Shown piece after piece: positions 20,169 to 64,000 of a DNA stretch of 64,000 bases; within the stretch, counting starts at the first letter, position 1, and every line of letters starts with the position of its first letter. Source of the DNA: Bacteroidales bacterium. Its GTDB lineage: Bacteria > Bacteroidota > Bacteroidia > Bacteroidales > GCA-2711565. Both the position numbers and the translations under genes were made by a program. The DNA lies in NCBI GenBank assembly GCA_963664245.1, contig OY760934.1, forward strand, positions 165,604 to 229,603, given 5' to 3'. Below the pieces are notes generated by a model. That model did not search any database, was not told the DNA's origin, and worked only from the letters and a program-made list of their open reading frames with translations.

Positions 20169-21002
20169 ATGTCGTATAATTTGCTTAAAGGGAAAAAAGG
20201 GATCATTTTCGGAGCCCTTGATGAAAAATCAATTGCCTGGAACGTTGCCGAACGTGCCTACGAAGAAGGTGCTACCTTTACCTTAACAAACACTCCGACT
20301 TCCATTCGTTTTGGAACCATTGATAAACTGGCCGAGAAAACCAATTCGATTGTTATTCCTGCCGATGCAACAAACGTTGATGATTTAACGAACCTGATCC
20401 AAAAATCGATGGAGCACCTTGGCGGGAAAGTGGATTTTATTTTACATTCTATCGGGATGTCGCTCAATGTGCGCAAGAAACGCGTGTATAATGATTTGAA
20501 TTATAATTTTCTGGAGAAAACCCTTGATATTTCGGCGGTTTCTTTTCATAAAGTGTTGCAAACCGCTTTTAAACTGGATGCCATTAACGATTGGGGCTCG
20601 GTAGTAGCTTTGTCGTACATCGCGGCTCAACGAACCTTGTTTGGCTATAATGATATGGCCGATGCCAAAGCCCTGCTCGAATCCATTGCCCGTAGTTTTG
20701 GCTACATTTATGGCCGCGAAAAAAGGATCAGGATCAATACTATTTCACAGTCGCCCACGCCAACCACGGCCGGTAGCGGAATCCGTGATTTAGATGGTTT
20801 GATGGATTTTACCGAGCGGATGTCTCCACTTGGAAATGCCACCGCCCTTGAGTGTGCCGATTATTGCATTACCCTTTTCTCAGATTTAACACGTAAGGTT
20901 ACTATGCAAAATTTGTTTCACGACGGAGGTTTCTCAAACATGGGTATGAGCATGCGTGCCATGCACCAATACGAAAAAAGTATTAATTGTAAAGAGTGCT
21001 AG
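20169..21002 (+). CDS. fabI: Enoyl-[acyl-carrier-protein] reductase, FabI type (SDR)
   Basis: 277 aa. The N-terminus LLKGKKGIIFGALDEKSIAW and SYIAAQRTLFGYNDMADAKALLES closely resemble Bacteroides-type FabI. Confidence 0.8.
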   Translation: MSYNLLKGKKGIIFGALDEKSIAWNVAERAYEEGATFTLTNTPTSIRFGTIDKLAEKTNSIVIPADATNVDDLTNLIQKSMEHLGGKVDFILHSIGMSLNVRKKRVYNDLNYNFLEKTLDISAVSFHKVLQTAFKLDAINDWGSVVALSYIAAQRTLFGYNDMADAKALLESIARSFGYIYGREKRIRINTISQSPTPTTAGSGIRDLDGLMDFTERMSPLGNATALECADYCITLFSDLTRKVTMQNLFHDGGFSNMGMSMRAMHQYEKSINCKEC

Positions 21003-49691: not shown

Positions 49692-50201
49692 TTAATACTT
49701 CCAGTTAACATACAAGGGCTTTTCCATCCAGGGAAATCTTATGGTGGAAAAAGAAAAAGGAATTTGGTTTATAAGCACATCATAAGCTCTTTGTTCAACG
49801 GTTAATTGCCAGCAATTTTCTTCTTCGGTTAACATACCCCCACGGATCAGCCAGCTTTCCCGGAAGACTTCTACGGATTGTTGATTAATGGGTTTCCAGT
49901 GATCAATAATGGACTTGATTAATCCTTCGGCTAGTTCTTCTTCCTGCGGTTTTAAATCAATGTGAAGGGGAACGTCTTCCGAAACGGGAAGCCCGCAAAT
50001 TATTTTATTAAGGAACAAGTCTGTTTGCATACTTTCCATTTTTCCGGTGGCTAGATATTGCAGATAGCAGACTGCTTTTTGCTGATCTTCTTTGGAGCGA
50101 AAAGCCTTTTCTTGCAATAAACCTAAGCGTTCAAAAAATGTGGGTAGAAAAGACTGGGTGATGACCAGCCCGGCATTGTTGATGAAAATTTTTTCGTTCA
50201 T
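49692..50201 (-). CDS. Stand-alone protein resembling the conserved C-terminal domain of contractile-injection-system (eCIS) tape-measure proteins
   Basis: 169 aa. NNAGLVITQSFLPTFFERLGLL...AVCYLQYLATG...LNKIICGLP...IDHWKP...FRESWLIRGGMLTEEENCWQLTVEQRAYDVLINQIPFSFSTIRFPWMEKPLYVNW matches my recollection of that domain's conserved blocks. This was not verified by search. Confidence 0.4.
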   Translation of the reverse strand: MNEKIFINNAGLVITQSFLPTFFERLGLLQEKAFRSKEDQQKAVCYLQYLATGKMESMQTDLFLNKIICGLPVSEDVPLHIDLKPQEEELAEGLIKSIIDHWKPINQQSVEVFRESWLIRGGMLTEEENCWQLTVEQRAYDVLINQIPFSFSTIRFPWMEKPLYVNWKY

Positions 50202-50914: not shown

Positions 50915-52042
50915 TTAGTACTCGTTTTTCTGCCCTATTAAGGGATTTATATTTTTAAGTTGTTGTTCAAGCTTTATTTTAGCTTGTAAAAATTCATCTT
51001 TGAGTTCCTGGAATATATTTTTTACCGAAGTAATTATCTTGATTTTTCCGGCATTAGCCCCGCAAAAAGCAAACCCATCATTCATGTTGCCATGATAAGC
51101 AGCGTTTAAAGCATTTGCAATGCAATACGAAGTGGTTTTTGGGTTGCACGATCTTATACAATGAAAAGGACAAACCGCAGGGCGGCGAAGCCCAAGGTTG
51201 GTTTCGTTGAGAAAGTTGTTGAAGATGGCCCGGCCGGGCAATCCAACAGGGCTTTTTATAATCTGGATATCTCCTTTTTTTATGTCGATAAAAGCCTTTT
51301 TAAATTCAGGTGATGCATCGCATTCTTCGGTGGCTATAAAACGGGTTCCCAACTGAACTCCGGCCGCTCCTTTTTCCATGATCTGAAAAGCATCATCGCC
51401 ACTATGAATACCCCCGGCCGCAATAACCGGAATGTCTTTGTTGAACCTTTCTTTCATCCTTTTGGTTACTTCCAGTACATTGCCCAGGATGTTTTCCAAT
51501 TGATTGTTTTCATCCTGGAGCTCATTGGCTTTAAATCCAAGATGTCCTCCGGCTTTTGGTCCTTCAACGACAAAAGCGTCGGGTAAATAGTTGAAATTTT
51601 GCATCCATTTTTCGCAAATAATTGAGGCTGCCCGTGAAGACGATACAATAGGAACCAGCTTTGTTTTGATCCCTTTTCCCAAATATTTGGGGAGATCCAA
51701 GGGTAATCCTGCTCCGGCAAAGATAATATCAATCTTTTCTTCGATGGAGGTTTTTACCATGTCCGAAAAATTGGTCAGCACCGACATGATGTTGACGGCA
51801 ATAACCCCCATGCTCATTTTTCGGGCTTTTTGTATTTCCTGGCGCAGGGTTTCAATATGGTTCAAACGGATATTTATGTTTTGATTTCGGTTTGTTAACC
51901 CAATGGCTACCGTAGAAATGGTACCGATACCCCCCATATTTGCAACAGCCGATGCCAGTCCTGACAATGAAATACCAACGCCCATGCCTCCCTGAATAAT
52001 AGGAATGCGAATTTTGAGGTCGCCAATGTTAAATGATTTCAA
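50915..52042 (-). CDS. Nitronate monooxygenase / FabK-like FMN-dependent enoyl reductase family protein
   Basis: 375 aa. PIIQGGMGVGIS, VVEGPKAGGHLG and IPVIAAGGI are NMO/NPD (FabK-type TIM barrel) motifs. An unusual Cys-rich C-terminal insert (CPFHCIRSC) is present. Confidence 0.7.
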   Translation of the reverse strand: MKSFNIGDLKIRIPIIQGGMGVGISLSGLASAVANMGGIGTISTVAIGLTNRNQNINIRLNHIETLRQEIQKARKMSMGVIAVNIMSVLTNFSDMVKTSIEEKIDIIFAGAGLPLDLPKYLGKGIKTKLVPIVSSSRAASIICEKWMQNFNYLPDAFVVEGPKAGGHLGFKANELQDENNQLENILGNVLEVTKRMKERFNKDIPVIAAGGIHSGDDAFQIMEKGAAGVQLGTRFIATEECDASPEFKKAFIDIKKGDIQIIKSPVGLPGRAIFNNFLNETNLGLRRPAVCPFHCIRSCNPKTTSYCIANALNAAYHGNMNDGFAFCGANAGKIKIITSVKNIFQELKDEFLQAKIKLEQQLKNINPLIGQKNEY

Positions 52043-52290
52043 TTTTTTTGATATTAGATATTAAATGAAAAAATAGATGCTAAAAAGACAGGACATAAAA
52101 AAGGATATGGAAACAGAAATGTGAGGCATCCATTCTTAAACCGGAATTTTGTGTAAAGGTACGCTAAATTTACGGGTAAAAAACAATTAGCTGCGAATTA
52201 GGGGATAAAGTTTTTCAGATTAGTAATTTTTTTAATTTTCACCTTTGTTAAATTAGTGTTAAAGCAAATACGTTTTTTGTCTTTAATCTA

Positions 52291-52298
52291 TATATTTG
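52291..52298 (+). promoter_or_regulatory. Candidate -7 promoter box for the beta-propeller cluster
   Basis: TATATTTG matches the Bacteroidota TAnnTTTG -7 consensus, 35 nt upstream of the ATG at 52333. I found no convincing -33 element. Confidence 0.3.
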
Positions 52299-52332
52299 AT
52301 TCCAGTGATAACCTAATTTAAAAGATTTAGCT

Positions 52333-53550
52333 ATGAAAAAGAATCTCTTTTTTATTGTCTCCCTGTTATTTTCAATAACCCTTTTCTCGCAAAATATAAG
52401 CCAATGGCGGGGCAAAAACCGTGATGGAAAATACCCGGATAAAAACTTGTTAAAAGAATGGCCCGCCGAAGGGCCTAAATTACTTTGGCATTTTGATGAG
52501 TTGGGTGAGGGGCATAGCTCGGTTGCTCCTTGGGAGAATTATATTTTTATTTCAGGAACCATTGATGGAAACGGCTACATTTTTAAGTTTACAGTGGATG
52601 GAAATCTGGTGTGGAAAAAATCGTACGGTAAAGAATGGGTGGAAAGCTGGCCCGGTGTGCGTTCAACGCCTCTTATTGTTGATGGACAATTGTACATGTT
52701 AACGGGCTTTGGTAAGTTGTTTTCGATGAATGCCGATGATGGAAGTATTGACTGGACTGTTCAAATCACGGATGCTTATGATGCCCCAAACATCAGGTGG
52801 GCCTTTTGTGAGAACCTTGCCGTGGATGGGGATAAACTGTTTGTTACGGCAGGTGGCAAAGAGGCAAATGTGTTAGCATTAAATAAAAACGACGGCTCGT
52901 TAATATGGAAAAGCCAGGCTTTGGGCGAAAAAAGTGCTTATGGGTCGCCCGCACTTATTACGCATAACAGACGTAAATTATTGGTGGCACATACCGAGTT
53001 TTCAGTTATCGGACTGGATGCCGGAACCGGGGAGTTTTTATGGTCGCACGAGAAGAAAAACCGATGGTCGGTTCACCCGAACACACCGCTTTATCACGAT
53101 GGACAGATATATGTTGTCAGTGGTTACGGCTCTGGCGGAAAGATCCTGAAATTAAATGAAGATGGAAGTCAGGTAACCCAAGTTTGGGAAAATATTTCGC
53201 TGGATAACCAAATGGGAGGCGTTGTTTTGTTGGATGGCTATTTATACGGTGGCGGACATAACAGCCGCAGCTTTTTTGTCCTGGACTGGAAAAGCGGTGA
53301 AGAAGTTTTTTCAACTCAGGAAATAGGTGCCGGAAATATTATTTATGCCGATGGACTGCTTTATTTTTATGATGAAAAAAAAGGCGTGGTAAACCTGATT
53401 CAACCCGCTGCCGGAAACACTAAAATAATCAGCAAATTTAAAGTGCCTTACGGATCAGCTCAACATTGGGCACATTTGGTAATTAATAATCAAAGATTAT
53501 ATGTCAGGCATGGAAATTCGTTAATGGTATATTCCATTGCAGCCGACTAA
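52333..53550 (+). CDS. Secreted PQQ-like (BamB-type) beta-propeller repeat protein, tandem paralogue 1
   Basis: 405 aa with a signal peptide (LFFIVSLLFSITLFSQ). It has the N-terminal motif SQWRGKNRDGKYPDKNLLKEWPAEGPKLLW and repeated blade signatures (DG.L.W, G.LY). The C-terminus is HLVINNQRLYVRHGNSLMVYSI. Confidence 0.8.
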   Translation: MKKNLFFIVSLLFSITLFSQNISQWRGKNRDGKYPDKNLLKEWPAEGPKLLWHFDELGEGHSSVAPWENYIFISGTIDGNGYIFKFTVDGNLVWKKSYGKEWVESWPGVRSTPLIVDGQLYMLTGFGKLFSMNADDGSIDWTVQITDAYDAPNIRWAFCENLAVDGDKLFVTAGGKEANVLALNKNDGSLIWKSQALGEKSAYGSPALITHNRRKLLVAHTEFSVIGLDAGTGEFLWSHEKKNRWSVHPNTPLYHDGQIYVVSGYGSGGKILKLNEDGSQVTQVWENISLDNQMGGVVLLDGYLYGGGHNSRSFFVLDWKSGEEVFSTQEIGAGNIIYADGLLYFYDEKKGVVNLIQPAAGNTKIISKFKVPYGSAQHWAHLVINNQRLYVRHGNSLMVYSIAAD

Positions 53551-53685
53551 TTTTATGTCTATAAATAAATATTATTACCATAAGCTTTTTTGCTGTTGGT
53601 AGATAACAGATTAACTTATTGGGTATTTCAATTAAAAAATGTTTTTTTTGCAATGCCAACAATTGAACTTAATTAAATAAATAGT

Positions 53686-54933
53686 ATGAAAAAAACAACT
53701 TTAGTAGCCATCGTGATTATGTTTGCTGCAACGATTAATGCACAGGTTATTGATGAATTTAGAGGTCTTGGAAGAACCGGTGTTTTCCCGGAAAAAAAAT
53801 TGTTGGAACAATGGCCTGCAGAAGGGCCTGAAATGCTTTGGTCAGTTGAGAAACTCCCGCAGGGGCATTCTTCCATGACCATTGCCTATAATACCATTTA
53901 CTTGACCGGCACTATTGATACCCTCGATTATGTGGTTGCACTGGATATGAACGGCAATTTGAAATGGCAAAAACCCTATGGCCGTGCCTGGAATAAATCT
54001 TTTCCCCGGAGCCGTTGTACTCCGACCATTGAAAATAAACGATTATATATTTCCAGTGGAATAGGTGATTTGGCTTGTGTGGATGCCATGAATGGTGACA
54101 TGATCTGGCAACTAAAGGCTTCCGATAAATTTGCAGGAAGCTATGGTCCTTGGGGAATTGCCGAGTCTCTCATTGTAAAAGGAGAGAAATTGTTTTTTAC
54201 TCCCGGAGGAAATGAAACCACTATGGTTGCCTTGAATAAAAATACCGGGGAAACCATCTGGAAATCGGAAAGCTTGAAAGATAATCCGTCCTACACTTCC
54301 CCCTTGTGGATTGAAGATGGCGATAAGAAACAAATTGTAAATGTTAGCCAGAATTATATTTTTGGGGTGAATCCCGATGATGGAACTATTGTTTGGAAAT
54401 TCTCATACGGTGAGTATGCAGGCCCACCATATCATTCGAACATCAATGCCAATACTCCGCTTTTTTATAAAAATGCTTTGTTTGTTACCAATGGTTACAA
54501 TCATACAAACCTCATGCTTGAGTTGGACAATGCCTGGAAAAATGTAATTCTAAAATGGAAGACTGATGACTTGGATACGCATCATGGAGGGGTAGTCAAA
54601 GTTGGGGGATATATTTACGGCTCAAACTGGATCAATAACGGGATGGGAAATTGGGTCTGTCTTGACTGGGAAACCGGAGAACTGAAATATGAAACCAAAT
54701 GGTTTAACAAAGGGCCTATTATTACTGCCGATGGAATGTTGTATTGTTACGATGAAAAATTCGGGAACATTGGAATAGCAAAGGCTACACCCGATGAATT
54801 TAAAGTCATTAGTTCAATGAAAATTACCTTGGGAGAAAAAGGGCCGTTTTGGTCGCACCCGGTAATTAAAGACGGTATTTTATATGTTCGTCACTTAGAT
54901 GCTGTTATGGCTTTTGATATTGCTGGTGAATAA
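53686..54933 (+). CDS. Secreted PQQ-like beta-propeller repeat protein, tandem paralogue 2
   Basis: 415 aa with a signal peptide. It has EFRGLGRTGVFPEKKLLEQWPAEGPEMLW and a C-terminus HPVIKDGILYVRHLDAVMAFDI. It aligns with paralogue 1 by eye. Confidence 0.8.
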   Translation: MKKTTLVAIVIMFAATINAQVIDEFRGLGRTGVFPEKKLLEQWPAEGPEMLWSVEKLPQGHSSMTIAYNTIYLTGTIDTLDYVVALDMNGNLKWQKPYGRAWNKSFPRSRCTPTIENKRLYISSGIGDLACVDAMNGDMIWQLKASDKFAGSYGPWGIAESLIVKGEKLFFTPGGNETTMVALNKNTGETIWKSESLKDNPSYTSPLWIEDGDKKQIVNVSQNYIFGVNPDDGTIVWKFSYGEYAGPPYHSNINANTPLFYKNALFVTNGYNHTNLMLELDNAWKNVILKWKTDDLDTHHGGVVKVGGYIYGSNWINNGMGNWVCLDWETGELKYETKWFNKGPIITADGMLYCYDEKFGNIGIAKATPDEFKVISSMKITLGEKGPFWSHPVIKDGILYVRHLDAVMAFDIAGE

Positions 54934-54982
54934 TTTGCTATTCGTTAATTCAAATTAACCATTTGCATATCTGATTGTTAAT

Positions 54983-55032
54983 ATAAGTAATTAGGTTAAG
55001 ATATTCGTTACTTATTAATCCTTAACCTAATT
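54983..55032 (+). promoter_or_regulatory. Nested, mutually exclusive inverted repeats immediately upstream of paralogue 3
   Basis: There is a perfect 12-bp repeat AATTAGGTTAAG (54989-55000) / CTTAACCTAATT (55021-55032). There is also a perfect 8-bp repeat ATAAGTAA (54983-54990) / TTACTTAT (55008-55015) whose loop contains the first arm of the 12-bp repeat. The ATG is at 55036. Confidence 0.4.
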
Positions 55033-55035
55033 ATC

Positions 55036-56253
55036 ATGAAAAAAACTTTTTTAGCTTTGATATTACTTTTTGTAATACATACACAGCAAATGGTTGCTCA
55101 GGACGTGAGCCAGTGGCGAGGTCCCGAACGTAACGGGTTCTTTCCCGATAAAGGCTTGTTAAAATCGTGGCCGGCCGAAGGTCCCGAACTATTATGGAGA
55201 TACGATGGCCTCGGCCTCGGATATTCTACTGTAGCCATTGCAAATAATCAAATTTATACGGCTGGAACCATCGATAGTATAAATTATATTTTTTCCTTTA
55301 ATTTTGATGGTAGACTGAATTGGAAGAAAAAACTCGGCTCCGGATGGATGGTGAATTATCCGGGGGTTCGTGCCACCCCCGTTATATACAAAGGATTAGG
55401 GTATTTGAGAAATGGATTTGGCGTAGTCTATTGTTTTGATGCTAGTAACGGGAATATTGTTTGGGAGAAAGATGTAGATAAAGAATTTGATGGGAAATAT
55501 TGCACTTTTGGTGTTTCAGAAAGTGTTATTGTTGACGAAAATTACTTGTATTGTGTTCCCGGCGGTAAGGACGCTAATCTGCTGGCTTTGGACAGAAAAA
55601 CCGGTGATTTCGTTTGGAAATCGTCTGGGAACGGAGAACCCAATACGTACTCATCTCCGGTATTATTTGAAAGAGGCGGAAATAAATATATTGCCGTACT
55701 TACCACTTCTTCTCTTTTTGCGGTGAATACCCAAAACGGTGAATTAGCCTGGAAACATGATCTTGGATCAAAACAATGCTCAAATACGCCAATTTATAAA
55801 GATGGAATTATTTATGTTTCATTGAGCGAAAAGGGCATTGCCTTAAAGTTGAACGAAGATGGTTCAGTTTATCACCCTCTTTGGGAAAATAATGATTTCA
55901 TGATTTTTCAGGGAGATGCTGTTCTGGTTGGTGAAAGACTTTACGCGCATACTGGCAAGTATCGGACCTTACGTTGTATCAACTGGAAAACGGGAAAAGA
56001 AATTTTTTCTGAAAAATTGGACCCAAAATTCCAAATTGCTTCTTTGGTTTTTGCCGACAACAGGCTTTATTGGTATTCTTATCTCGGGAACATGAGATTA
56101 TTTTCGGTTGATAATAACAAATTTGTACAAAAAGGATCGTTTGATTTACCCGTTGAATTAAAAAATCATTGCTCTTATATGGTGATCCATGATGGGAAAC
56201 TGTTTGTGAGGTATCAAGATACCTTATTGGTTTATAATATTTCTAACAATTAA
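55036..56253 (+). CDS. Secreted PQQ-like beta-propeller repeat protein, tandem paralogue 3
   Basis: 405 aa with a signal peptide. It has SQWRGPERNGFFPDKGLLKSWPAEGPELLW and a C-terminus MVIHDGKLFVRYQDTLLVYNI. Confidence 0.8.
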   Translation: MKKTFLALILLFVIHTQQMVAQDVSQWRGPERNGFFPDKGLLKSWPAEGPELLWRYDGLGLGYSTVAIANNQIYTAGTIDSINYIFSFNFDGRLNWKKKLGSGWMVNYPGVRATPVIYKGLGYLRNGFGVVYCFDASNGNIVWEKDVDKEFDGKYCTFGVSESVIVDENYLYCVPGGKDANLLALDRKTGDFVWKSSGNGEPNTYSSPVLFERGGNKYIAVLTTSSLFAVNTQNGELAWKHDLGSKQCSNTPIYKDGIIYVSLSEKGIALKLNEDGSVYHPLWENNDFMIFQGDAVLVGERLYAHTGKYRTLRCINWKTGKEIFSEKLDPKFQIASLVFADNRLYWYSYLGNMRLFSVDNNKFVQKGSFDLPVELKNHCSYMVIHDGKLFVRYQDTLLVYNISNN

Positions 56254-56265
56254 AAGCATATAGTC

Positions 56266-57492
56266 ATGAAAAAAGTAATTTTTGCAATATTTATTCTGGC
56301 TATATTCCTTGTTTCCTGTAACCATCAGAATATAGAGATTGCCCAGTGGGGAGGTTTGGATCGTAGTAGTTTTTATCCCGATAAAGACCTTTTGGATAAG
56401 TGGAAAGAAGGTGGGCCGGATTTAATCTGGAAATACGACAGCTTGGGCTGTGGATATGCCTCGGCGGCAGTGCTTTCCGATAAGGTAATTACAATTGCAA
56501 CTACTGATAGCATTAGCTATGTAGTAGCTTTTGACCATAAAGGAAGTGTCCTTTATAAAGAAAAATTGGGCCGGGAGTGGATGGCGAATTTCCCGGGAAA
56601 CCGATCTACGCCAATTATTTATGATGGCTTTGGCTATTTTCAGGGAAGCCTTGGGGTGCTTTATTGTTTTAATGCCGATAATGGCAAAGTCGTTTGGTCA
56701 AAAGATTTGTTTAAAGACTTTGATGGCGTAAACAACCATTATGGAATAACGGAAAATTTTGTAATCGACGGCGAAAAAATATTTGCTACCCCGGGAGGAG
56801 TGAAAAATAATATCATTGCCTTGAATCGTTTTAACGGTGATTTGATTTGGAGTATTAGCGCGAACAAAGAAGAAAGTGCTTATGGTGCGCCTAATATTAT
56901 TGAAGTAGAGAGTCAAAAATATTTGATAATTTTTACAAAGGGGAGTTTGTTTTCAATTAATCCTGAAACAGGAGAGATTTTTTGGAGCATGCTTTTAGAA
57001 GGAAAATCGACCAAAGCGATTACCCCAATTTATAAAAACGGATACCTATACGTAGGTGCCGGTTATAAAAATGGGTACATGAAATTGAAAATAGCTGAAG
57101 ATGGGCATTCTGTTAAAACAATTTGGGTAAATAAGGATATTACGAACGGCATGAATGGCGGTTTTATTTACGGTAACAAACTGTATGCTGGAACCGGTGG
57201 GCATCCTGCAAAAATGTTTTGCTCAATTGATCTGAACACGGGGAAGATTGTGGATTCTTTAAAAATGAATCCGCCAATGACAACTATTGGGGCTGATGGA
57301 AAAGCATACGTTTATTTGTTTCGATCGGGCGAAATAAAATTGATTGATCTGGAGAATGGCTTGAAAATAGTTGGTAGCTTACACATTCCAGGAGGAATTG
57401 AAAATGAACACTGCTCACATCCGGTAATTCATGATGGAAGATTATATGTTCGTCACGATAATAATTTGTTTGTCTACAATATTAAAGAATAG
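56266..57492 (+). CDS. PQQ-like beta-propeller repeat lipoprotein, tandem paralogue 4
   Basis: 408 aa with a lipobox (FLVSCNH). It has AQWGGLDRSSFYPDKDLLDKWKEGGPDLIW and a C-terminus HPVIHDGRLYVRHDNNLFVYNI. It begins 12 nt after paralogue 3. Confidence 0.8.
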   Translation: MKKVIFAIFILAIFLVSCNHQNIEIAQWGGLDRSSFYPDKDLLDKWKEGGPDLIWKYDSLGCGYASAAVLSDKVITIATTDSISYVVAFDHKGSVLYKEKLGREWMANFPGNRSTPIIYDGFGYFQGSLGVLYCFNADNGKVVWSKDLFKDFDGVNNHYGITENFVIDGEKIFATPGGVKNNIIALNRFNGDLIWSISANKEESAYGAPNIIEVESQKYLIIFTKGSLFSINPETGEIFWSMLLEGKSTKAITPIYKNGYLYVGAGYKNGYMKLKIAEDGHSVKTIWVNKDITNGMNGGFIYGNKLYAGTGGHPAKMFCSIDLNTGKIVDSLKMNPPMTTIGADGKAYVYLFRSGEIKLIDLENGLKIVGSLHIPGGIENEHCSHPVIHDGRLYVRHDNNLFVYNIKE

Positions 57493-57558
57493 TTTTAAGC
57501 ATTTTGTAAATTAGAGCTTTATTAAGAAAAACAGATTTTTTTTAGAGAAGTTGGAAAA

Positions 57559-58986
57559 ATGATACAGAGCCGAAAAGAATTAATGCTTGTTGTTTTGGGT
57601 GTTTTTATTGCGCTCAGCATACTTTTTTACTGGTTGGCATACAATCCTGTGACTGATCTGTCAGTGAGTTTGCCCGGAATGGATAACCGCCCCGAAGGCG
57701 GTGTTGCCGACGGGGAAGTGGTTACTATAGGAGCCAGCTTTATGAAATATGCCGATCATTCTTCCTGGCTTACCGGAAAATGGACCCGTTTCCGCGGGGC
57801 TGATTTTGATAATATCAATAAAGAAAACATTCCGCTGATTGATAACTGGAGCGGAGGTCCGAAAATTCTTTGGGAACACGATCTTGGAGAAGGTCATGCG
57901 GCTCCGGTAATTTATAACGGCAAAGTATATCTGCTCGATTATATTGAGAACCGGCGAACCGATGCTCTGCGTTGCTTTTCGCTGGAAACCGGCGAAGAAT
58001 TATGGAGCCGCTGGTATTTGGTAAAAATCAAGCGTAACCACGGCATGTCGCGTACAATTCCGGCCATCACAGATAAATATCTGGTGACCATAGGTCCGCG
58101 TTGCCATGTAATGTGCGTAAATCCCGAAAACGGGGATATGCTTTGGGGTATCGATATGGTAAAAGAATACGGCACTGAAGTGCCTTTCTGGTATACCGGC
58201 CAATGCCCGTTGATCGTTGATGATGTGGCCATCCTCGCCCCGGGAGGTTCTTCCCTGATTATTGGCGTGGATTGTGCCACTGGTAAAGTGCTTTGGGAAA
58301 CGCCCAATCCCGATAATTGGCAAATGTCGCACTCTTCCATCATGCCAATGACATACAACGGAAAGAAAATGTACATTTACATGGCCGTTGGAGGCATTGT
58401 TGGCATTTCTGCCGAAGGCGAAGATGTTGGCAAAATTTTATGGAAAACCACCGATTTTAACCCGAATGTTTTGGCCTCTTCGCCGCTTGTGTTGGACAAT
58501 GGGAAGTTTTATGTGACGGCTGGTTATGGAGCCGGAGCAGCCGTTTTTCAGCTCCAGGAAAATGCAGGGAACTATGCGGTTAAATTACTTGATAAATATA
58601 AACCTAAAGATGGGATTGCTTCCGAGCAACAAACCCCTATTTATTACAAAGGAAAAGTATTTGGGATTTTGCCCAAAGATGCCGCAGGAAACCGCAATCA
58701 ACTGGTTTGTGTTGATCCTGCAAATTTTCAGGAATTTGTGTGGACAAGCGGGAAAACGCATCGTTTCGGATTGGGACCATACGTTGTTGCCGACGACAAG
58801 TTCTTTATTTTAAATGATGATGGAACACTGACCATCGCCAAAGTAAACTTGAACCAGTTCGAGTTTTTGGATGAATACCGAATTACCGAGGGACACGATG
58901 CTTGGGGGCCGCTTGCCATTGCCGATGGTTACCTACTGATGAGAGATTCGAAAAAAATGGTGTGTCTAAATATAAAAGCCGACTAA
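57559..58986 (+). CDS. Membrane-anchored PQQ-like beta-propeller repeat protein (single N-terminal TM)
   Basis: 475 aa with an N-terminal anchor (LMLVVLGVFIALSILFYWLAY). It has WTRFRGADFDN...GGPKILW and blade motifs (GEELW, GDMLW, GKVLW, GKILW). The C-terminus is LAIADGYLLMRDSKKMVCLNI. Confidence 0.8.
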   Translation: MIQSRKELMLVVLGVFIALSILFYWLAYNPVTDLSVSLPGMDNRPEGGVADGEVVTIGASFMKYADHSSWLTGKWTRFRGADFDNINKENIPLIDNWSGGPKILWEHDLGEGHAAPVIYNGKVYLLDYIENRRTDALRCFSLETGEELWSRWYLVKIKRNHGMSRTIPAITDKYLVTIGPRCHVMCVNPENGDMLWGIDMVKEYGTEVPFWYTGQCPLIVDDVAILAPGGSSLIIGVDCATGKVLWETPNPDNWQMSHSSIMPMTYNGKKMYIYMAVGGIVGISAEGEDVGKILWKTTDFNPNVLASSPLVLDNGKFYVTAGYGAGAAVFQLQENAGNYAVKLLDKYKPKDGIASEQQTPIYYKGKVFGILPKDAAGNRNQLVCVDPANFQEFVWTSGKTHRFGLGPYVVADDKFFILNDDGTLTIAKVNLNQFEFLDEYRITEGHDAWGPLAIADGYLLMRDSKKMVCLNIKAD

Positions 58987-58990
58987 ACCG

Positions 58991-59980
58991 ATGAAAAACA
59001 AAGGAATTCTTATACTAATGATCGCCTTACTCCTGATAATTGTCGGGTTTATGGCAAGGGATTTATTTTTCGCGCCACAGGCAGAACCGAAAAATCCCTA
59101 TGAATACAATGTCGATCAGTTTAAAAAGGCTGATTCAGCATTGCTTTGTTATCGGGAAGTTGAACAGATTCAACCTAAAACGGAGATTCTTAATGCCATC
59201 GCTATTGATAAAAACGATCGTCTTTATGTATCCGGTAAAGAAAAGCTTTTTGTTTATGATGCAAATTTTCAGTTAGTTCATTTTTTTGAAACAGATAGTC
59301 AGATAAACGATCATATCAAATTTTCTGAAGATATTTATTGCATCAGTATTTCTGAGGATGGAACCATCTACCTCGGAATGGTTGATCATATTGAGGTTTA
59401 TTCCGCATCTGGCGGGAAAATTGCATCCTGGGAAAGTCGCGGGGAAGGAGCCATTTTTACCTCCATTGCACAAACGGAGACTTCGGTTTTTGTAGCTGAT
59501 GCCGGGAACAAAATCGTATATCATTATAACCATAAGGGGGATTTACTTAATACGATTGACGGGAAAAATCCGGACAATCCAAAAGGCTTTATTATCCCCA
59601 GTGCTTATTTCGATTTGTTGATAGGACGAAACGATGAGCTTTGGATCGTCAATCCTGGTTTGCACCAACTGGGAATGTATCGTCCGAATGGGGAATTGAT
59701 TTCTTCTTGGGGAGAAACATCCATGCGTTGGGAAGGTTTTTGCGGATGTTGTAACCCTTCGCATATTGCCATGCTTTCGGACGGTTCTTTCGTAACTTCC
59801 GAAAAAGGAATAGAAAGGGTTAAAATTTACCACCCCGATGGCGAGTTTAAATGCGTGGTGGCTGCACCCGACGATTTTATTGATGGTACACGCGATTTGG
59901 ATTTGTCCGTGGATTCAAAAGACAGGATTTATGTGATGGATAAAGAAAAAGGTTTAATCAGGATATTTGACAAAAAATAA
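58991..59980 (+). CDS. Membrane-anchored six-bladed NHL-repeat beta-propeller protein with a CGCC motif
   Basis: 329 aa with an N-terminal TM (ILILMIALLLIIVGFM). Six NHL-like units are visible (e.g. AIAIDKNDRLYVSG, ISISEDGTIYLG, VFVADAGNKIVYHYN, DELWIVNPGLHQLGMY, IAMLSDGSFVTSEKGIERVKIY, LSVDSKDRIYVMDKEKGLIRIF). The motif WEGFCGCCNPSH lies in blade 5. It begins 4 nt after the previous gene. Confidence 0.7.
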   Translation: MKNKGILILMIALLLIIVGFMARDLFFAPQAEPKNPYEYNVDQFKKADSALLCYREVEQIQPKTEILNAIAIDKNDRLYVSGKEKLFVYDANFQLVHFFETDSQINDHIKFSEDIYCISISEDGTIYLGMVDHIEVYSASGGKIASWESRGEGAIFTSIAQTETSVFVADAGNKIVYHYNHKGDLLNTIDGKNPDNPKGFIIPSAYFDLLIGRNDELWIVNPGLHQLGMYRPNGELISSWGETSMRWEGFCGCCNPSHIAMLSDGSFVTSEKGIERVKIYHPDGEFKCVVAAPDDFIDGTRDLDLSVDSKDRIYVMDKEKGLIRIFDKK

Positions 59981-59983
59981 AAG

Positions 59984-60184
59984 ATGGATAGAAAAGAATT
60001 TTTTAGAACTATCGGGCGAGGGGTTTTGTTTGCTGCTTTAATTGGTGGTGGGATATATTTGATGACAAGACCTAAGAAAACGGATGAATGTGAGCTTGAT
60101 TTTGTTTGTAAAAAATGCAACAAGTTGGACAAGTGTCGCTTGCCAGAAGCAAAAAAATATAAAGAAACAGAAAAGCTGAGGTGA
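59984..60184 (+). CDS. 66-aa micro-protein with Tat-like N-terminus, one TM and a C-terminal Cys4 motif
   Basis: It reads MDRKEFFRTIGRGVLFAALIGGGIYLM (an R-K variant of the S/T-R-R-x-F-L-K Tat motif), then ECELDFVCKKCNKLDKC (C-x6-C-x2-C-x5-C). The gaps are 3 nt to the upstream gene and 1 nt to the downstream gene. Confidence 0.55.
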   Translation: MDRKEFFRTIGRGVLFAALIGGGIYLMTRPKKTDECELDFVCKKCNKLDKCRLPEAKKYKETEKLR

Positions 60185-60185
60185 T

Positions 60186-60764
60186 ATGTCGGATCAGGAA
60201 AAGAAAAAAAATGTCGACCGCAGGGAGTTCATCAACACCGGGCTTCGGTTTTCGCTAGCCATTGGTATTGGTGGGCTGGCTCTCTCATTGGCTAAAAATG
60301 CCATCGGCGAAGAAATGGTTTGGCAGTTGGATGCGGCTAAATGTGTGCAATGTGGGCGGTGTGCCGATCATTGTGTATTACAGGTTTCTGCTGTGAAATG
60401 TATGCACGTTTACGATATGTGCGGTTATTGCGATTTATGCGGGGGGTATTATCGCCCGGAAGCCAGGGATCGCTCCACGGCCGCTGAAAATCAACTTTGT
60501 CCAACGGCTGCTATTGAGCGTAAATTCATCGAAGAACCTTTCTTTGAGTATCACATCAACGAAGATTTATGCATAGGCTGTGGGAAATGTGTAAAAGGTT
60601 GCGGGGCTTTCGGAAACGGGTCCATGCAATTGCAGGTTAATCACAGCATTTGCGTGAATTGCAACGAATGTTCTATTGCCCGTGTTTGTCCGGCAGATGC
60701 TTTTACCCGCGTGCCGGCCAGCAACCCTTATTTATTTAAAGGATTTGATTCATCAAAAAAATAG
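60186..60764 (+). CDS. Tat-signal periplasmic poly-ferredoxin (NapG / MauM / NosG-like, up to four 4Fe-4S motifs)
   Basis: 192 aa with a twin-arginine signal (VDRREFINTGLRFSLAIGIGGLALSLA). The Cys motifs are CVQCGRCADHC, CGYCDLCGG...LCP, CIGCGKCVKGC and CVNCNECSIARVCP. Confidence 0.75.
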   Translation: MSDQEKKKNVDRREFINTGLRFSLAIGIGGLALSLAKNAIGEEMVWQLDAAKCVQCGRCADHCVLQVSAVKCMHVYDMCGYCDLCGGYYRPEARDRSTAAENQLCPTAAIERKFIEEPFFEYHINEDLCIGCGKCVKGCGAFGNGSMQLQVNHSICVNCNECSIARVCPADAFTRVPASNPYLFKGFDSSKK

Positions 60765-60772
60765 TTCGCCGA

Positions 60773-62059
60773 ATGAAAAAGAAAATTCTAATACTTTTAA
60801 TGATCGTCATTAGCGGACTACAATTTGTTGAGCTGCAGGCTCAGCAAAGGTTTCCTAAGCCCGAGTTCGAATCGGGTCATACCCAGCCACCAACCATTAC
60901 CCCCGAGCCGCGCTCAACCACTATGGAATATGTGGATATATTTTTGCTCTTGGCTTCACTTTCATTGGTTACTTGGTTGGTGTTAAAAAAGCGTTCAAGA
61001 ATAAGCGTGTTTTGGGTGTCGGTTTTTGCGTTGGTTTATTTTGGCTTTATCAGGGAAGGCTGTGTCTGCTCGGTCGGTTCGTTGCAAAATATTGTATTGG
61101 CTCTTTTTAACCCCAATTACCAAATCCCGGTTTCGGTTATAGTGTTCTTTGCCCTGCCCTTGATTTTCTCATTGTTTTACGGACGGGTCTTTTGTGCTGC
61201 TGTTTGTCCTTTGGGAGCTATCCAGGATTTCTTCTTGATCCGCCCGGTAAGTATGAAAAAATGGTTGCAGTCGGTGCTTGGCTTGATCCCCTATATCTAT
61301 TTAGGATTAGCCATTTTATATGCGGCAACATCCACCGATTTTATTATTTGCCGTTACGATCCCTTTGTCGGGATTTTTAGGTTCAATGCTACCTTTATGA
61401 TGTATGTAATTGGTGGAGCTATACTGTTGATTTCTATGTTTGTTGGCAGGCCTTATTGCCGGTTTTTGTGTCCTTACGGTGTCCTGTTGAACCTCACCAG
61501 CCGCTTGTCGAAAAAGCATTTAAGCATTACACCAACCGAATGTATTCAGTGTCGTTTATGCGAAAATTCCTGTCCGTTCGGAGCCATTGATAAGCCCGTT
61601 GAAGCCAGAAAAGTAGAAGACCGTAGAAAAATTGTTAGACGATATTCGTGGATGGTGTTGCTGCTTCCCGTGCTGATGTTTATCGGCGGGTGGACGTTTG
61701 CCAGTTTCCACGAAACCCTGGCAAAAGTAAACCCTAAAGTTGAACTGGCCGGCTTGATTTTGGAAAATCCCGAGGTTCTTACCAAAGACATGAGCGAAGA
61801 TATTGATGCTTTCCGTGACTCCGGGAAAACCAAAGAACAACTGTTTACTGAGGCCGCTACCATTGTGAGCGATTTTTATAAAGGTTCGTGGTTGTTGGGT
61901 GGATTTCTTGGGCTGGTATTTGGCTTGACCCTCATGAAATTGACGATTGTAAGGTATCGAACCGATTACACCCCGAATAAAGGAGGCTGTTTTAGTTGTG
62001 CCCGTTGTGTAGACTATTGCCCGGTAGAAAAGGTGGATCATATTAGAATTGAAAAATAA
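60773..62059 (+). CDS. Polytopic membrane FeS protein (NapH / MauN / NosH-NosR C-terminal family)
   Basis: 428 aa with multiple TMs. It has two CX3CP motifs (GRVFCAAVCPLGAIQDF; GRPYCRFLCPYGVLLNL) and two ferredoxin motifs (CIQCRLCENSCP; CFSCARCVDYCP). About 130 aa containing two further TMs separate the ferredoxin motifs. Confidence 0.75.
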   Translation: MKKKILILLMIVISGLQFVELQAQQRFPKPEFESGHTQPPTITPEPRSTTMEYVDIFLLLASLSLVTWLVLKKRSRISVFWVSVFALVYFGFIREGCVCSVGSLQNIVLALFNPNYQIPVSVIVFFALPLIFSLFYGRVFCAAVCPLGAIQDFFLIRPVSMKKWLQSVLGLIPYIYLGLAILYAATSTDFIICRYDPFVGIFRFNATFMMYVIGGAILLISMFVGRPYCRFLCPYGVLLNLTSRLSKKHLSITPTECIQCRLCENSCPFGAIDKPVEARKVEDRRKIVRRYSWMVLLLPVLMFIGGWTFASFHETLAKVNPKVELAGLILENPEVLTKDMSEDIDAFRDSGKTKEQLFTEAATIVSDFYKGSWLLGGFLGLVFGLTLMKLTIVRYRTDYTPNKGGCFSCARCVDYCPVEKVDHIRIEK

Positions 62060-63930
62060 TGAGTTCAGAAATGAAGAATAAAAATATAAGACTTTGGAGA
62101 TGGGTAGCGGTTATTTCAGGCGCATTTACCATTTTAATTTGCTTTTTGTTGATGGCAACGTATTTTCAGTTGAACCGTTTGAATCCGGTTGAAACGGAAG
62201 CCATCAATACTTTGGTTCAGCGCTTAAGCGAAAACCCGGATGACGAAGCCTTGAGAAACGAAATCAGGTCGTTGGATTTGTTGGTTCGCAAAGCTTATTT
62301 TACGAACCAATGGCAGGTGAAAATCGGTGGTTATATCGCATTTATCAGCCTGGCCATTATGCTGATCGCCATCCAAATAATTTCCCAGTCAAAGCCTGTT
62401 GATCCTAAACTGGAAGAATTGGAAGATACCGACGATTTGCTGTTCAAAAAACGCTCCCGCAAGTGGATTTCCATCGGAGGCGTTTCAATAGTGTTGATCG
62501 CTTTGGTGTTGGCTTTTCTGACCCATGAAAAACTGGAAGCCAAATTTATCCGGGCAGCCATTGCCGAAGTAAATGAGCTTGAGGTTAAGACCGAGGTCGA
62601 GAATAAGCTTGAAAAAGAAGTGGTGAAAAATATGGAACAAGATACAGTTGCCCCTGATAATACCCCGGACGCTAAAACAGATGAAAAAGAAATTGTAAAA
62701 GAGACAAATCCTGCTAAACCTAAACCTAAATCTCAATCTCAAAAAAAAGAAACTCTCAGGGTATCTACTGCCAGCTACATGGAAAAAATGAAGAGTCAGT
62801 TCCCAACATTCAGAGGTGCTGGCGGCTTGGGGATCGCTTACCAAAAAAACATTCCCACTCAATGGGATGGGGCAAATAATCAAAACATAAAATGGAAAGT
62901 TAAGATTGATTATAAAGGCTACAATTCGCCGATTATATGGGACGATAAATTATTCCTGACCGGGGCGGATGCCAGCAAAAAAGAAGTTTTCTGTTACAAT
63001 AAAAATACCGGGGCTTTGCTTTGGTCAAAAGAAATTACAGGTATCCCAAATTCTCCGGAAGCTCCTGCCGTAACCGACGATACCGGGCATGCAGCACCAA
63101 CAGCTGCAACCGATGGCGAACGGGTTTATGCCATTTTTTCAAACGGAGATATTGTTGCCCTTGATATGAACGGGAAGATGGTGTGGGGCAATAACCTCGG
63201 TCTGCCACGCAACCATTACGGACATTCATCTTCATTATACACTTACGAGGATAAACTGATTGTGCAATACGACCAGGGAAACGCGGCGAAAATCTTGGCT
63301 CTGTCAACCAAAGATGGTTCTCAAATCTGGAGCACTCCGCGCCAGGTAAAAATATCCTGGGCATCGCCGGTTCTGATTGAAAGAAACGGGACGGTTGAGG
63401 TTGTTTTAAGTGCCGATCCTTTTGTTTGTGGCTACGATGTGGACACCGGTAAAGAATTGTGGAGCATCAAGTGCATGATGGGGGAGGTTGGCCCTTCTGT
63501 GGCTTATGAAAATGGGCTGGTGTTTGCCGTAAACGAATATGCCAGTTTGGTGGCTATTTCCGGTGGGAACACTCCCGAAATTCTCTGGGAAAGTTATGAT
63601 TACCTTTCAGATGTGCCAAGCCCGATTGCATACCACGATCTGTTGTTCTTGCCAACCAGTTACGGCGTGGTCGTTTGCCATAATGCCAAAACCGGAGAGA
63701 TTATTTGGGAACACGAATTCCCGGACGGATTTTATTCTTCCCCCATTTTGGTTAATGGGTTGATTTATCTGCCCGACATGAGTGGGAACATCCAGATATT
63801 TAAAGCCGAAAACAAATTTGAACTGGTGGCAAGCTGTCCTTTGGGAGAACGAATGGTTACTACCCCGGCTTTTGCCGACGGGCAAATATTCCTCCGTAGT
63901 GAAGAACATTTATGGTGTATTGGAAAATAA
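62059..63930 (+). CDS. Triple-TM-anchored PQQ-like beta-propeller repeat protein with a charged low-complexity linker
   Basis: 623 aa. The start overlaps the previous stop by 1 nt (TAATG). It has three TMs in the first ~165 aa and a Lys/Glu/Pro-rich linker (KTDEKEIVKETNPAKPKPKSQSQKKE). The propeller follows FPTFRGAGGLG, with blade motifs GALLW, GKMVW, GSQIW, GKELW, PEILW and GEIIW. Confidence 0.8.
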   Translation: MSSEMKNKNIRLWRWVAVISGAFTILICFLLMATYFQLNRLNPVETEAINTLVQRLSENPDDEALRNEIRSLDLLVRKAYFTNQWQVKIGGYIAFISLAIMLIAIQIISQSKPVDPKLEELEDTDDLLFKKRSRKWISIGGVSIVLIALVLAFLTHEKLEAKFIRAAIAEVNELEVKTEVENKLEKEVVKNMEQDTVAPDNTPDAKTDEKEIVKETNPAKPKPKSQSQKKETLRVSTASYMEKMKSQFPTFRGAGGLGIAYQKNIPTQWDGANNQNIKWKVKIDYKGYNSPIIWDDKLFLTGADASKKEVFCYNKNTGALLWSKEITGIPNSPEAPAVTDDTGHAAPTAATDGERVYAIFSNGDIVALDMNGKMVWGNNLGLPRNHYGHSSSLYTYEDKLIVQYDQGNAAKILALSTKDGSQIWSTPRQVKISWASPVLIERNGTVEVVLSADPFVCGYDVDTGKELWSIKCMMGEVGPSVAYENGLVFAVNEYASLVAISGGNTPEILWESYDYLSDVPSPIAYHDLLFLPTSYGVVVCHNAKTGEIIWEHEFPDGFYSSPILVNGLIYLPDMSGNIQIFKAENKFELVASCPLGERMVTTPAFADGQIFLRSEEHLWCIGK

Positions 63931-63945
63931 GAATTGAAGTACGGA

Positions 63946-64000
63946 ATGATTGATATAATAAATCGGATAATAGAACAACACGGGAAGTCGGTAGAGAAGG
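63946..64000 (+). CDS. Possible 5' end of a further cluster gene running off the window
   Basis: The ATG at 63946, 15 nt after the previous stop, opens MIDIINRIIEQHGKSVEK with no stop before the window edge. Only 18 codons are visible and the identity is unknown. Confidence 0.25.
   Translation, partial: MIDIINRIIEQHGKSVEK

Follow-up and report, generated by a model that had tools for sequence, protein, structure and literature searches.

What does a pair of NapG- and NapH-like iron-sulfur (FeS) proteins do when it is encoded among propeller genes, and with which partners would it exchange electrons? This question is raised by a 64,000-nt stretch of a Bacteroidales genome on contig OY760934.1 (the window; its locus on the source contig is labeled L082). 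The two open reading frames (ORFs) singled out there by a first-pass annotation, 60186..60764 (+) and 60773..62059 (+), are both present, and neither the window nor its contig holds a nap, nos, or mau gene. That annotation took the pair for a divergent member of the quinol-dehydrogenase family adapted to a new partner. We favor another answer, to which we give a probability of roughly 45%: the pair would form the FeS transmembrane core of a conserved, heme-free redox complex that conducts electrons from an NAD(P)H module to propellers in the periplasm.

The smaller gene encodes a NapG-like protein with a twin-arginine translocation (Tat) signal, in which RREF at residues 12-15 (60219-60230) is followed by a hydrophobic core, and with 17 Cys residues in four ferredoxin-type groups; the RR.F signature and all of the Cys groups are kept in 76 orthologs. 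It has the Tat signal and four [4Fe-4S] Cys groups of NapG and MauM and scores 20.6 bits against the corresponding model, TIGR00397 (cut-off, 178.85); a PDB search with it recovered generic ferredoxin motifs only. In the larger, NapH-like protein, the two CX3CP and two CxxCxxCxxxCP motifs were all located (Table 1). The two ferredoxin motifs, which had been placed about 130 residues apart with two transmembrane (TM) helices in between, are separated by 137 residues, and Kyte-Doolittle analysis places hydrophobic helices at 294-312 and 375-393. The 62-residue segment between these helices contains 12 acidic and 7 basic residues, and is mostly helical in an AlphaFold2 (AF2) model, in which it has low confidence; no Pfam or NCBIfam model matches it, in line with the earlier remark that no motif was recognized in it. 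Thus, the motifs of both proteins were read correctly at the outset, and what had been overlooked in the NapH-like protein are a signal-like peptide at the N terminus, one more TM pair, and the Cys residues C97, C99, and C193, and, outside it, a 66-aa gene with four Cys residues at 59984-60184 and the continuation of the operon beyond base 64000.

Hydropathy gives the NapH-like protein an N-terminal signal peptide followed by seven predicted TM helices. Lysine plus arginine add up to 3, 4, 14, and 7 residues in the loops presumed to be cytoplasmic, and the remaining loops have 3, 1, 2, and 7. Taken together with the positive-inside rule, this would place both CX3CP and both ferredoxin motifs in the cytoplasm, with the N-terminal RFPxPxF segment, the C97-x-C99 loop, the C193 loop, and the insert facing the periplasm. 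Since it is two helices that are inserted, the two ferredoxin half-sites would remain on the same side of the membrane and could still form one two-cluster domain. A cytoplasmic C terminus also fits the natural fusions described below, in which it leads straight into the first TM helix of the propeller protein P6.

By their sequences, the NapH-like proteins form a distinct, unnamed, and widespread clade. A word-indexed search scored 7,864 homologs, the best 120 of which are full length, 60-80% identical, and mostly named only "4Fe-4S binding protein"; an exhaustive search of 50%-identity representatives gave 397 clusters at E <= 1e-30. Nearly all of the top 150 representatives align through residue ~420, the split ferredoxin thus included. 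In 113 full-length representatives of the 50%-identity clusters, all 15 Cys residues of the NapH-like protein are at least 96% conserved, and the insert is present throughout, though poorly conserved in sequence. With this degree of Cys conservation and more than 7,800 homologs scored, the motif architecture is not a product of chance. Genome matches come from Bacteroidota (Marinilabiliales and Cytophagales), Planctomycetota, Verrucomicrobiota, Kiritimatiellia, Lentisphaeria, and one Poribacteria metagenome-assembled genome (MAG), and the culturable hosts comprise Draconibacterium, Mariniphaga, Maribellus, Marinifilum, and Labilibaculum. We found no description of the gene cluster in the literature, and papers on Caldithrix and Kiritimatiellales contain nothing relevant to it.

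Profile comparisons support the view that the NapH-like protein is a divergent member of the NapH/NosR membrane-module superfamily. It is polytopic with two CX3CP motifs, as in the NapH/NosR/RdhC superfamily (Fer4_5, COG0348), and matches Pfam Fer4_5 (PF12801) in two stretches with 64.8 bits (cut-off, 22). It aligns by hhalign with Escherichia coli NapH at 94% probability (residues 116-269, 24% identity over the core) and with Paracoccus NosR at 97% (residues 119-245, with the CX3CP motifs in register). On the other hand, its scores of 47.0 bits against TIGR02163 (NapH/MauN; cut-off, 213.05), 43.6 against PRK09477 (NapH; cut-off, 234), and 33.7 against the NosR model (cut-off, 1000) are so far under the curated cut-offs that it is not an ortholog of NapH, NosH, MauN, or NosR, as the first-pass annotation had suspected. 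No FixG, CcoG, or FixG_C model was seen among its Pfam matches (E up to 0.01) or its 25 best NCBIfam matches; in CcoG/FixG, a FixG-type ferredoxin region is joined by FixG_C, an Ig-like periplasmic domain at the C terminus. PDB searches with the sequence and its profile returned generic ferredoxin motifs only, with no solved structure of the membrane module detectable.

The gene neighborhood is as conserved as the protein, and the suspicion that an unnamed clade would prove to lie always beside propeller genes held up well. We examined 80 related loci, counting a gene, where stated, only over loci whose contig has room for it. P6 is adjacent to the NapH-like gene in 76 of the 80, and the NapG-like gene is likewise present in 76. 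Where there is room, the NHL propeller lies upstream in 68/70, P5 is present in 61/67, a NuoE-NuoF (NuoEF) fusion comes right after P6 in 62/63, and a GltD-like gene is present in 59/59; one to six secreted propeller paralogs of the P1-P4 type occur in 57 of the 80. This synteny spans at least five phyla. In Planctomycetes the order is permuted while the set remains the same (PQQ7, GT4, ABC, FtsX, P5, NHL, NapG-like, NapH-like, P6, NuoEF, GltD), so that the genes are better explained as one functional unit than as neighbors by chance. In ten of the top 150 representatives, moreover, the NapH-like protein and P6 are fused into a single protein of ~1,000 aa, and these natural fusions make P6 very probably its direct physical partner. 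No NapG::NapH fusion was seen among the longer representatives, whose extra length is due to internal insertions. The 10 kb on either side of the 80 loci is occupied by the propeller, Bfu-type flavoprotein, glycosyltransferase family 4 (GT4), and ATP-binding cassette (ABC) transporter genes; no nap, nos, or mau gene was present within this distance in the loci inspected, and the further ORFs checked in five of them (L001, L024, L064, L071, and L076) are unrelated.

The absence of a cognate reductase, which the first-pass annotation had noted, turns out to be an effect of the window's end, 70 bases past P6. Directly beyond P6, L082 encodes a 779-aa NuoE-NuoF-2x[4Fe-4S] fusion, followed by a 517-aa GltD-like protein that combines a NuoG-like [2Fe-2S] N terminus with a GltD-like NAD(P)H/FAD domain; neither has a signal peptide. 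The best solved relative of the fusion is NfnB of PDB entry 9n5u (1.8e-201, covering 7-593 of 602), and those of the GltD-like protein are NfnA of 9n5u (8.5e-79), StnC, and 9bov_A (1e-79 to 1e-88), so that it is one set of entries, 9n5u, 9bov, and 8oh5 (the Stn complex), whose chains come closest to both. Their predicted domain content is that of the Bfu enzymes, with a NuoF-like BfuB, a NuoE-like BfuC, and a GltD-type BfuA. Bfu enzymes are electron-bifurcating NADPH:NAD+/ferredoxin enzymes in which the NuoF/NuoE-like core bifurcates (PMC10482914; PMC9304861). Ferredoxin is proposed to be reduced at the 2x[4Fe-4S] domain with which their NuoF-like subunit ends (PMC10482914). The present pair most resembles the bifurcating Nfn-Bfu/Stn enzymes and probably bifurcates electrons as well. 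Its linkage to the NapG/NapH-like genes points to NAD(P)H, not quinol, as the cytoplasmic redox partner, and no membrane protein of the cluster has a sizable redox domain in the cytoplasm except the NapH-like protein, with its predicted FeS domain. The words NapH, polyferredoxin, and transmembrane do not occur in a survey of the Bfu family (PMC9304861).

At the other end of the proposed chain stand the propellers. They score far under the cut-offs for pyrroloquinoline quinone (PQQ) dehydrogenases and resemble cofactor-less BamB-like proteins. A PDB search with P6 returned BamB and, as weak matches, tetrathionate hydrolase and PQQ dehydrogenases; one with the NHL protein returned only TRIM-type and designed NHL propellers, and one with P5 returned no match. 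None of these results points to a function. No protein of the cluster contains a CxxCH heme motif. In the NHL protein, a GCCNP motif (residues about 250-256), whose two Cys residues are vicinal, is found across 68 orthologs with a conserved TsEKg..R.K after it, and is a candidate redox-active or metal-binding site. The 66-aa protein encoded between the NHL and NapG-like genes matches no Pfam or NCBIfam family, yet loci of Bacteroidota, Planctomycetota, and Kiritimatiellia show its four-Cys pattern at the same place. This small protein may be a mini FeS or metal protein with a Tat anchor; its orientation is uncertain because basic residues flank its TM helix on both sides. A role of the cluster in sulfur reduction was considered, prompted by NsoC as a relative of StnC, the weak match of P6 to tetrathionate hydrolase, and the Cys pair of the NHL protein, and was set aside as too thinly founded.

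The scheme that we favor would run as follows. An Nfn-Bfu/Stn-type flavoprotein, made up of the NuoEF fusion and the GltD-like subunit, would oxidize NAD(P)H in the cytoplasm, with the split 2x[4Fe-4S] domain of the NapH-like protein taking the place of soluble ferredoxin as its partner. From there, electrons would cross the membrane via the CX3CP and periplasmic Cys sites, to be taken up in the periplasm by the Tat-exported four-cluster NapG-like ferredoxin. They would then pass to the membrane-anchored propellers P5, P6 (the direct partner), and NHL (the one that has the vicinal Cys pair), which would reduce a periplasmic substrate. There is a precedent for cytoplasmic docking in NapF, which binds NapH through the first CX3CP motif (PMC5928378). 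An outward flow is favored because the propellers are BamB-like and cofactor-less and no protein of the cluster appears able to oxidize a low-potential periplasmic donor.

Several observations weigh against this scheme. It is synteny alone that suggests the coupling of the Bfu-type pair to the NapH-like protein: no Bfu subunit fused to a membrane component was found, and since Nfn-Bfu needs no partner beyond NADPH, NAD, and soluble ferredoxin, it could work independently as a transhydrogenase and only happen to be encoded alongside. A further difficulty is the ~30 Å of membrane that electrons would have to cross in this family; even for NapH and NosR, no role has been assigned to the CX3CP motifs (PMC5928378). 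The AF2 model, built on a 36-sequence alignment, has a mean pLDDT of 60 and falls below 50 in the FeS regions, and a Foldseek comparison of it with the PDB gave only noise, with no match at E <= 0.001; with so poor a model, the topology is drawn from hydropathy only. Finally, the propellers contain no recognizable redox cofactor site. A bolder version of the scheme goes further, and we consider it rather unlikely: a bifurcating Nfn-Bfu enzyme docked on the split-ferredoxin NapH-like protein would export ferredoxin-level reductant without quinone or heme, so that cofactor-less propellers could carry out a difficult periplasmic reduction, with sulfur, metal, or organic compounds as candidate acceptors. 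If true, such a reductant-export system would be widespread in sediment Bacteroidota and Planctomycetes-Verrucomicrobia-Chlamydiae (PVC) bacteria.

Among the alternatives, the one that fares best, if still an unlikely one, is a NapGH-type quinol dehydrogenase in which the NapH-like membrane module would oxidize menaquinol and the NapG-like ferredoxin would relay the electrons to a periplasmic reductase of the propeller type, with NuoEF/GltD being a separate soluble transhydrogenase or one that feeds the cytoplasmic clusters for redox balancing only. The homology to the NapH/NosR core with both CX3CP motifs and the Tat-exported four-cluster partner, as in NapG, speak for it, and NapGH-like modules have been proposed as quinol dehydrogenases for Nap (PMC5928378) and for a reductive dehalogenase (PMC4585668). 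Yet no member of the family has a defined quinol site, the 47 versus 213 bits obtained here are far under the NapH/MauN cut-offs, and a linkage of 62/63 for NuoEF and 59/59 for GltD that survives permutation of the gene order is hard to square with an unrelated enzyme. Of the first-pass view, the divergent clade and the new partners stand, and the function as quinol dehydrogenase is only extrapolated from NapH.

Somewhat less probable again is a role in maintenance or maturation, in which the pair, like NosR for NosZ or CcoG for copper, would supply reductant to keep a periplasmic cofactor or thiol reduced and active, not to sustain a catabolic reduction in bulk; the thiol could be the vicinal Cys pair of the NHL protein, or a metal ion could be reduced for insertion. 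Relatives in the family, NosR among them, are thought to activate and maintain a periplasmic enzyme besides transferring electrons to it (PMC5928378), and such a role would accommodate the invariant GCCNP motif, the three extra predicted periplasmic Cys residues, and propellers without obvious cofactor sites. As many as nine propeller genes on top of a whole bifurcating NAD(P)H module would, however, be a heavy outlay for this purpose, and the cluster contains no recognizable metalloenzyme or chaperone gene. We regard as improbable an inward flow, in which the propellers would oxidize a low-potential periplasmic donor and the NapG/NapH-like pair would deliver the electrons to Bfu for confurcation with NADH, making NADPH. 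The Bfu, Stn, and Nfn enzymes are reversible (PMC10482914; PMC9304861), which would permit it, and the propellers belong to a PQQ-dehydrogenase-like superfamily. Their scores under the PQQ-dehydrogenase cut-offs and their resemblance to BamB tell against it, as does the lack of any molybdenum/tungsten, nickel, or heme site in the cluster for H2, formate, or similar donors. Moreover, PQQ chemistry is far too oxidizing to reduce ferredoxin-level clusters. That the pair is an ordinary NapGH, NosGH, or MauMN ortholog whose partner reductase lies elsewhere in the genome is hardly to be believed, since only generic domain similarity speaks for it, against curated hidden Markov model scores 5- to 30-fold under the cut-offs, the split ferredoxin domain and extra Cys residues, the lack of nap, nos, or mau genes noted above, and a propeller and Bfu context that is constant in 80 loci.

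Table 1. Genes of the propeller cluster within the window and sequence features of the NapG- and NapH-like proteins (window coordinates)
Feature	Position	Strand	Description
P1-P4	52333..57492	+	Four secreted paralogous PQQ_2-like propellers, P4 with lipoprotein-type signal; head of the same-strand gene array
P5	57559..58986	+	PQQ_2/BamB-like propeller with N-terminal TM anchor
NHL	58991..59980	+	TM-anchored NHL-type six-bladed propeller with invariant GCCNP motif
Small Cys4 protein	59984..60184	+	66 aa; RR/RK-x-F, one TM helix, Cx5Cx2Cx5C, then LPEA
NapG-like	60186..60764	+	192-aa Tat-exported polyferredoxin with four [4Fe-4S]-type Cys groups
NapG-like Cys groups			C53/56/59/63; C72/79/82/85 + C105-P; C129/132/135/139; C156/159/162/168-P
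NapH-like	60773..62059	+	428-aa polytopic FeS membrane protein: signal peptide, 7 predicted TM helices, split ferredoxin domain
C97-x-C99	61061..61069	+	In the predicted periplasmic loop that follows TM2; conservation of 98-99% among 113 representatives
CX3CP motif 1, C141-P146	61193..61210	+	Predicted cytoplasmic end of TM3; 100% conserved; aligns with NapH and NosR motif
C193	61349..61351	+	Predicted periplasmic loop between TM4 and TM5; 98% conserved
CX3CP motif 2, C229-P234	61457..61474	+	Predicted cytoplasmic end of TM5; aligns with NapH and NosR motif
Ferredoxin motif 1 (CxxCxxCxxxCP), C257-P268	61541..61576	+	Predicted cytoplasmic
Insertion relative to NapH	61652..61951	+	TM6 61652-61708, 62-aa segment 61709-61894, TM7 61895-61951
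Ferredoxin motif 2 (CxxCxxCxxxCP), C406-P417	61988..62023	+	Predicted cytoplasmic C terminus
P6	62059..63930	+	Three-TM N-terminal domain and predicted periplasmic PQQ_2-like propeller

The genes from P5 to P6 are tightly packed, with intergenic gaps of 4, 3, 1, 8, and -1 nt, the last being a 1-nt overlap between the stop codon of the NapH-like gene and the start of P6. The 12-kb same-strand cluster (52001-64000) has a GC skew of +0.11 to +0.21 and a GC content of up to 0.42-0.44, as against a skew of about 0-0.1 and a GC content of 0.28-0.40 in the preceding 50 kb. An Rfam scan of the whole window revealed neither a riboswitch nor any other RNA. Sigma-70 promoter-like sites are no commoner than in shuffled controls, terminator-like sites are about twice as common as in such controls, and no site of either kind marks the limit of an operon. 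Upstream, a 169-aa ORF at 49692-50201 (-) matches only positions 298-463 of 463 of PF19268 (E 2.7e-65), the model of a contractile-injection-system tape-measure protein, of which it covers the C-terminal third; the ORF is a stand-alone fragment or else belongs to a gene that is truncated or frameshifted.

Downstream of the window, the NuoE-NuoF fusion and GltD-like genes of L082 are followed by genes for a secreted propeller, a GT4 glycosyltransferase, and an ABC transporter. GT4 and PQQ7, often with a MacB-type ABC/FtsX transporter, constantly co-occur with the redox genes, and the GT4 proteins at two loci (L082:18184-19377 and L001:18278-19573) both have a CxxC motif (GGSFYCGNCLRD) within their first 25 residues. 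The ABC ATPase gene downstream of the cluster on L082 is split into three short ORFs (20243-20924, +), which suggests either assembly frameshift errors or a pseudogene. In a Tangfeifania MAG, a single ORF of 1,427 codons (L019:5764-10047, +) covers both the P6 propeller and the NuoEF fusion; it would join a periplasmic propeller to a cytoplasmic flavoprotein and, being topologically implausible for this reason, is probably due to a lost stop codon or an assembly error. Draconibacterium clusters (L024:3405-5178 and L024:15490-15945) have genes for a LytS-type histidine kinase and a LytTR response regulator among the propeller genes and one for a thioredoxin-fold protein between NuoEF and GltD; these may be lineage-specific accessories or regulators.

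More generally, few respiratory parts are as poorly understood as the NapH/NosR-type membrane modules, and the clade described here shows such a module recruited to a wholly different partner set and genetically tied to an NAD(P)H-oxidizing, probably bifurcating, flavoprotein. Its conserved, predicted periplasmic Cys residues could mark the missing electron exit site, and the natural fusions with a propeller suit structural work. Should the coupling to the flavoprotein hold, it would represent a new route for low-potential electrons into the periplasm of abundant polysaccharide-degrading sediment bacteria, and would provide a role for an 8-11 gene cluster whose present annotations do not go beyond "4Fe-4S binding protein" and "PQQ-like repeat protein."

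Taken singly, the parts of the system are of familiar types, namely an FeS module like NapGH and a flavoprotein of the Bfu family. Its split-ferredoxin architecture, extra, predicted periplasmic Cys residues, propellers as partners, and link with an NAD(P)H module of the bifurcating type appear to be new. Like NapH/NapG (of E. coli and Wolinella), NosH/NosG, and MauN/MauM, it has two CX3CP motifs, predicted to lie where TM helices reach the cytoplasm, a pair of CxxCxxCxxxCP motifs on the predicted cytoplasmic side, and an adjacent gene for a Tat-exported ferredoxin with four Cys groups. However, the NapH/MauN architecture is one of four TM helices and tandem C-terminal ferredoxin motifs, ~25 residues apart in E. 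coli NapH, whereas in the present protein two TM helices and a predicted periplasmic loop of 62 aa split these motifs, and a signal peptide, an extra N-terminal TM helix, and three conserved, predicted periplasmic Cys residues are added; C97-x-C99 and C193 are missing in E. coli NapH, E. coli YccM, and Paracoccus NosR alike. The genomic context differs just as much, propellers and an NAD(P)H flavoprotein standing in the place of nap, nos, or mau genes. NosR/NirI and RdhC (PceC) resemble it in the CX3CP membrane module and in a periplasmic N terminus that precedes the TM helices, and NosZ, the partner enzyme of NosR, is itself a propeller protein. Unlike NosR/NirI, the present protein has no periplasmic flavin mononucleotide (FMN)-binding domain with a threonine motif for covalent FMN (no Pfam match to FMN_bind was obtained, and its predicted periplasmic N-terminal segment has only ~28 residues), no nosZ or rdhA gene lies nearby, and RdhC lacks any FeS motifs (PMC5928378). 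E. coli YccM and the other COG0348 "polyferredoxins" share the Fer4_5 core, two ferredoxin motifs, and one more TM helix beyond the NapH core; in YccM, however, the extra helix follows both ferredoxin motifs instead of separating them, and YccM has no propeller linkage. None of 285 plasmid-borne homologs (NosR, YccM, and others) reaches past residue ~290 of the query, and all leave the insert uncovered.

On the cytoplasmic side, the comparison is with Nfn-Bfu (NfnABC) and Stn (StnABC). Over almost its whole length, the NuoEF fusion can be aligned with NfnB, StnB, and HydB, so that the [2Fe-2S] domain at the N terminus and the 2x[4Fe-4S] domain at the C terminus are both covered, and the GltD-like subunit has the NuoG-like N terminus and GltD domain of NfnA and StnC. 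Here, unlike in these enzymes, a single chain holds both BfuC and BfuB, no FdhF-like domain is present at the C terminus of the BfuA-like subunit (517 aa versus 963-1178 aa), and the module is encoded within a cluster of membrane and periplasmic genes.

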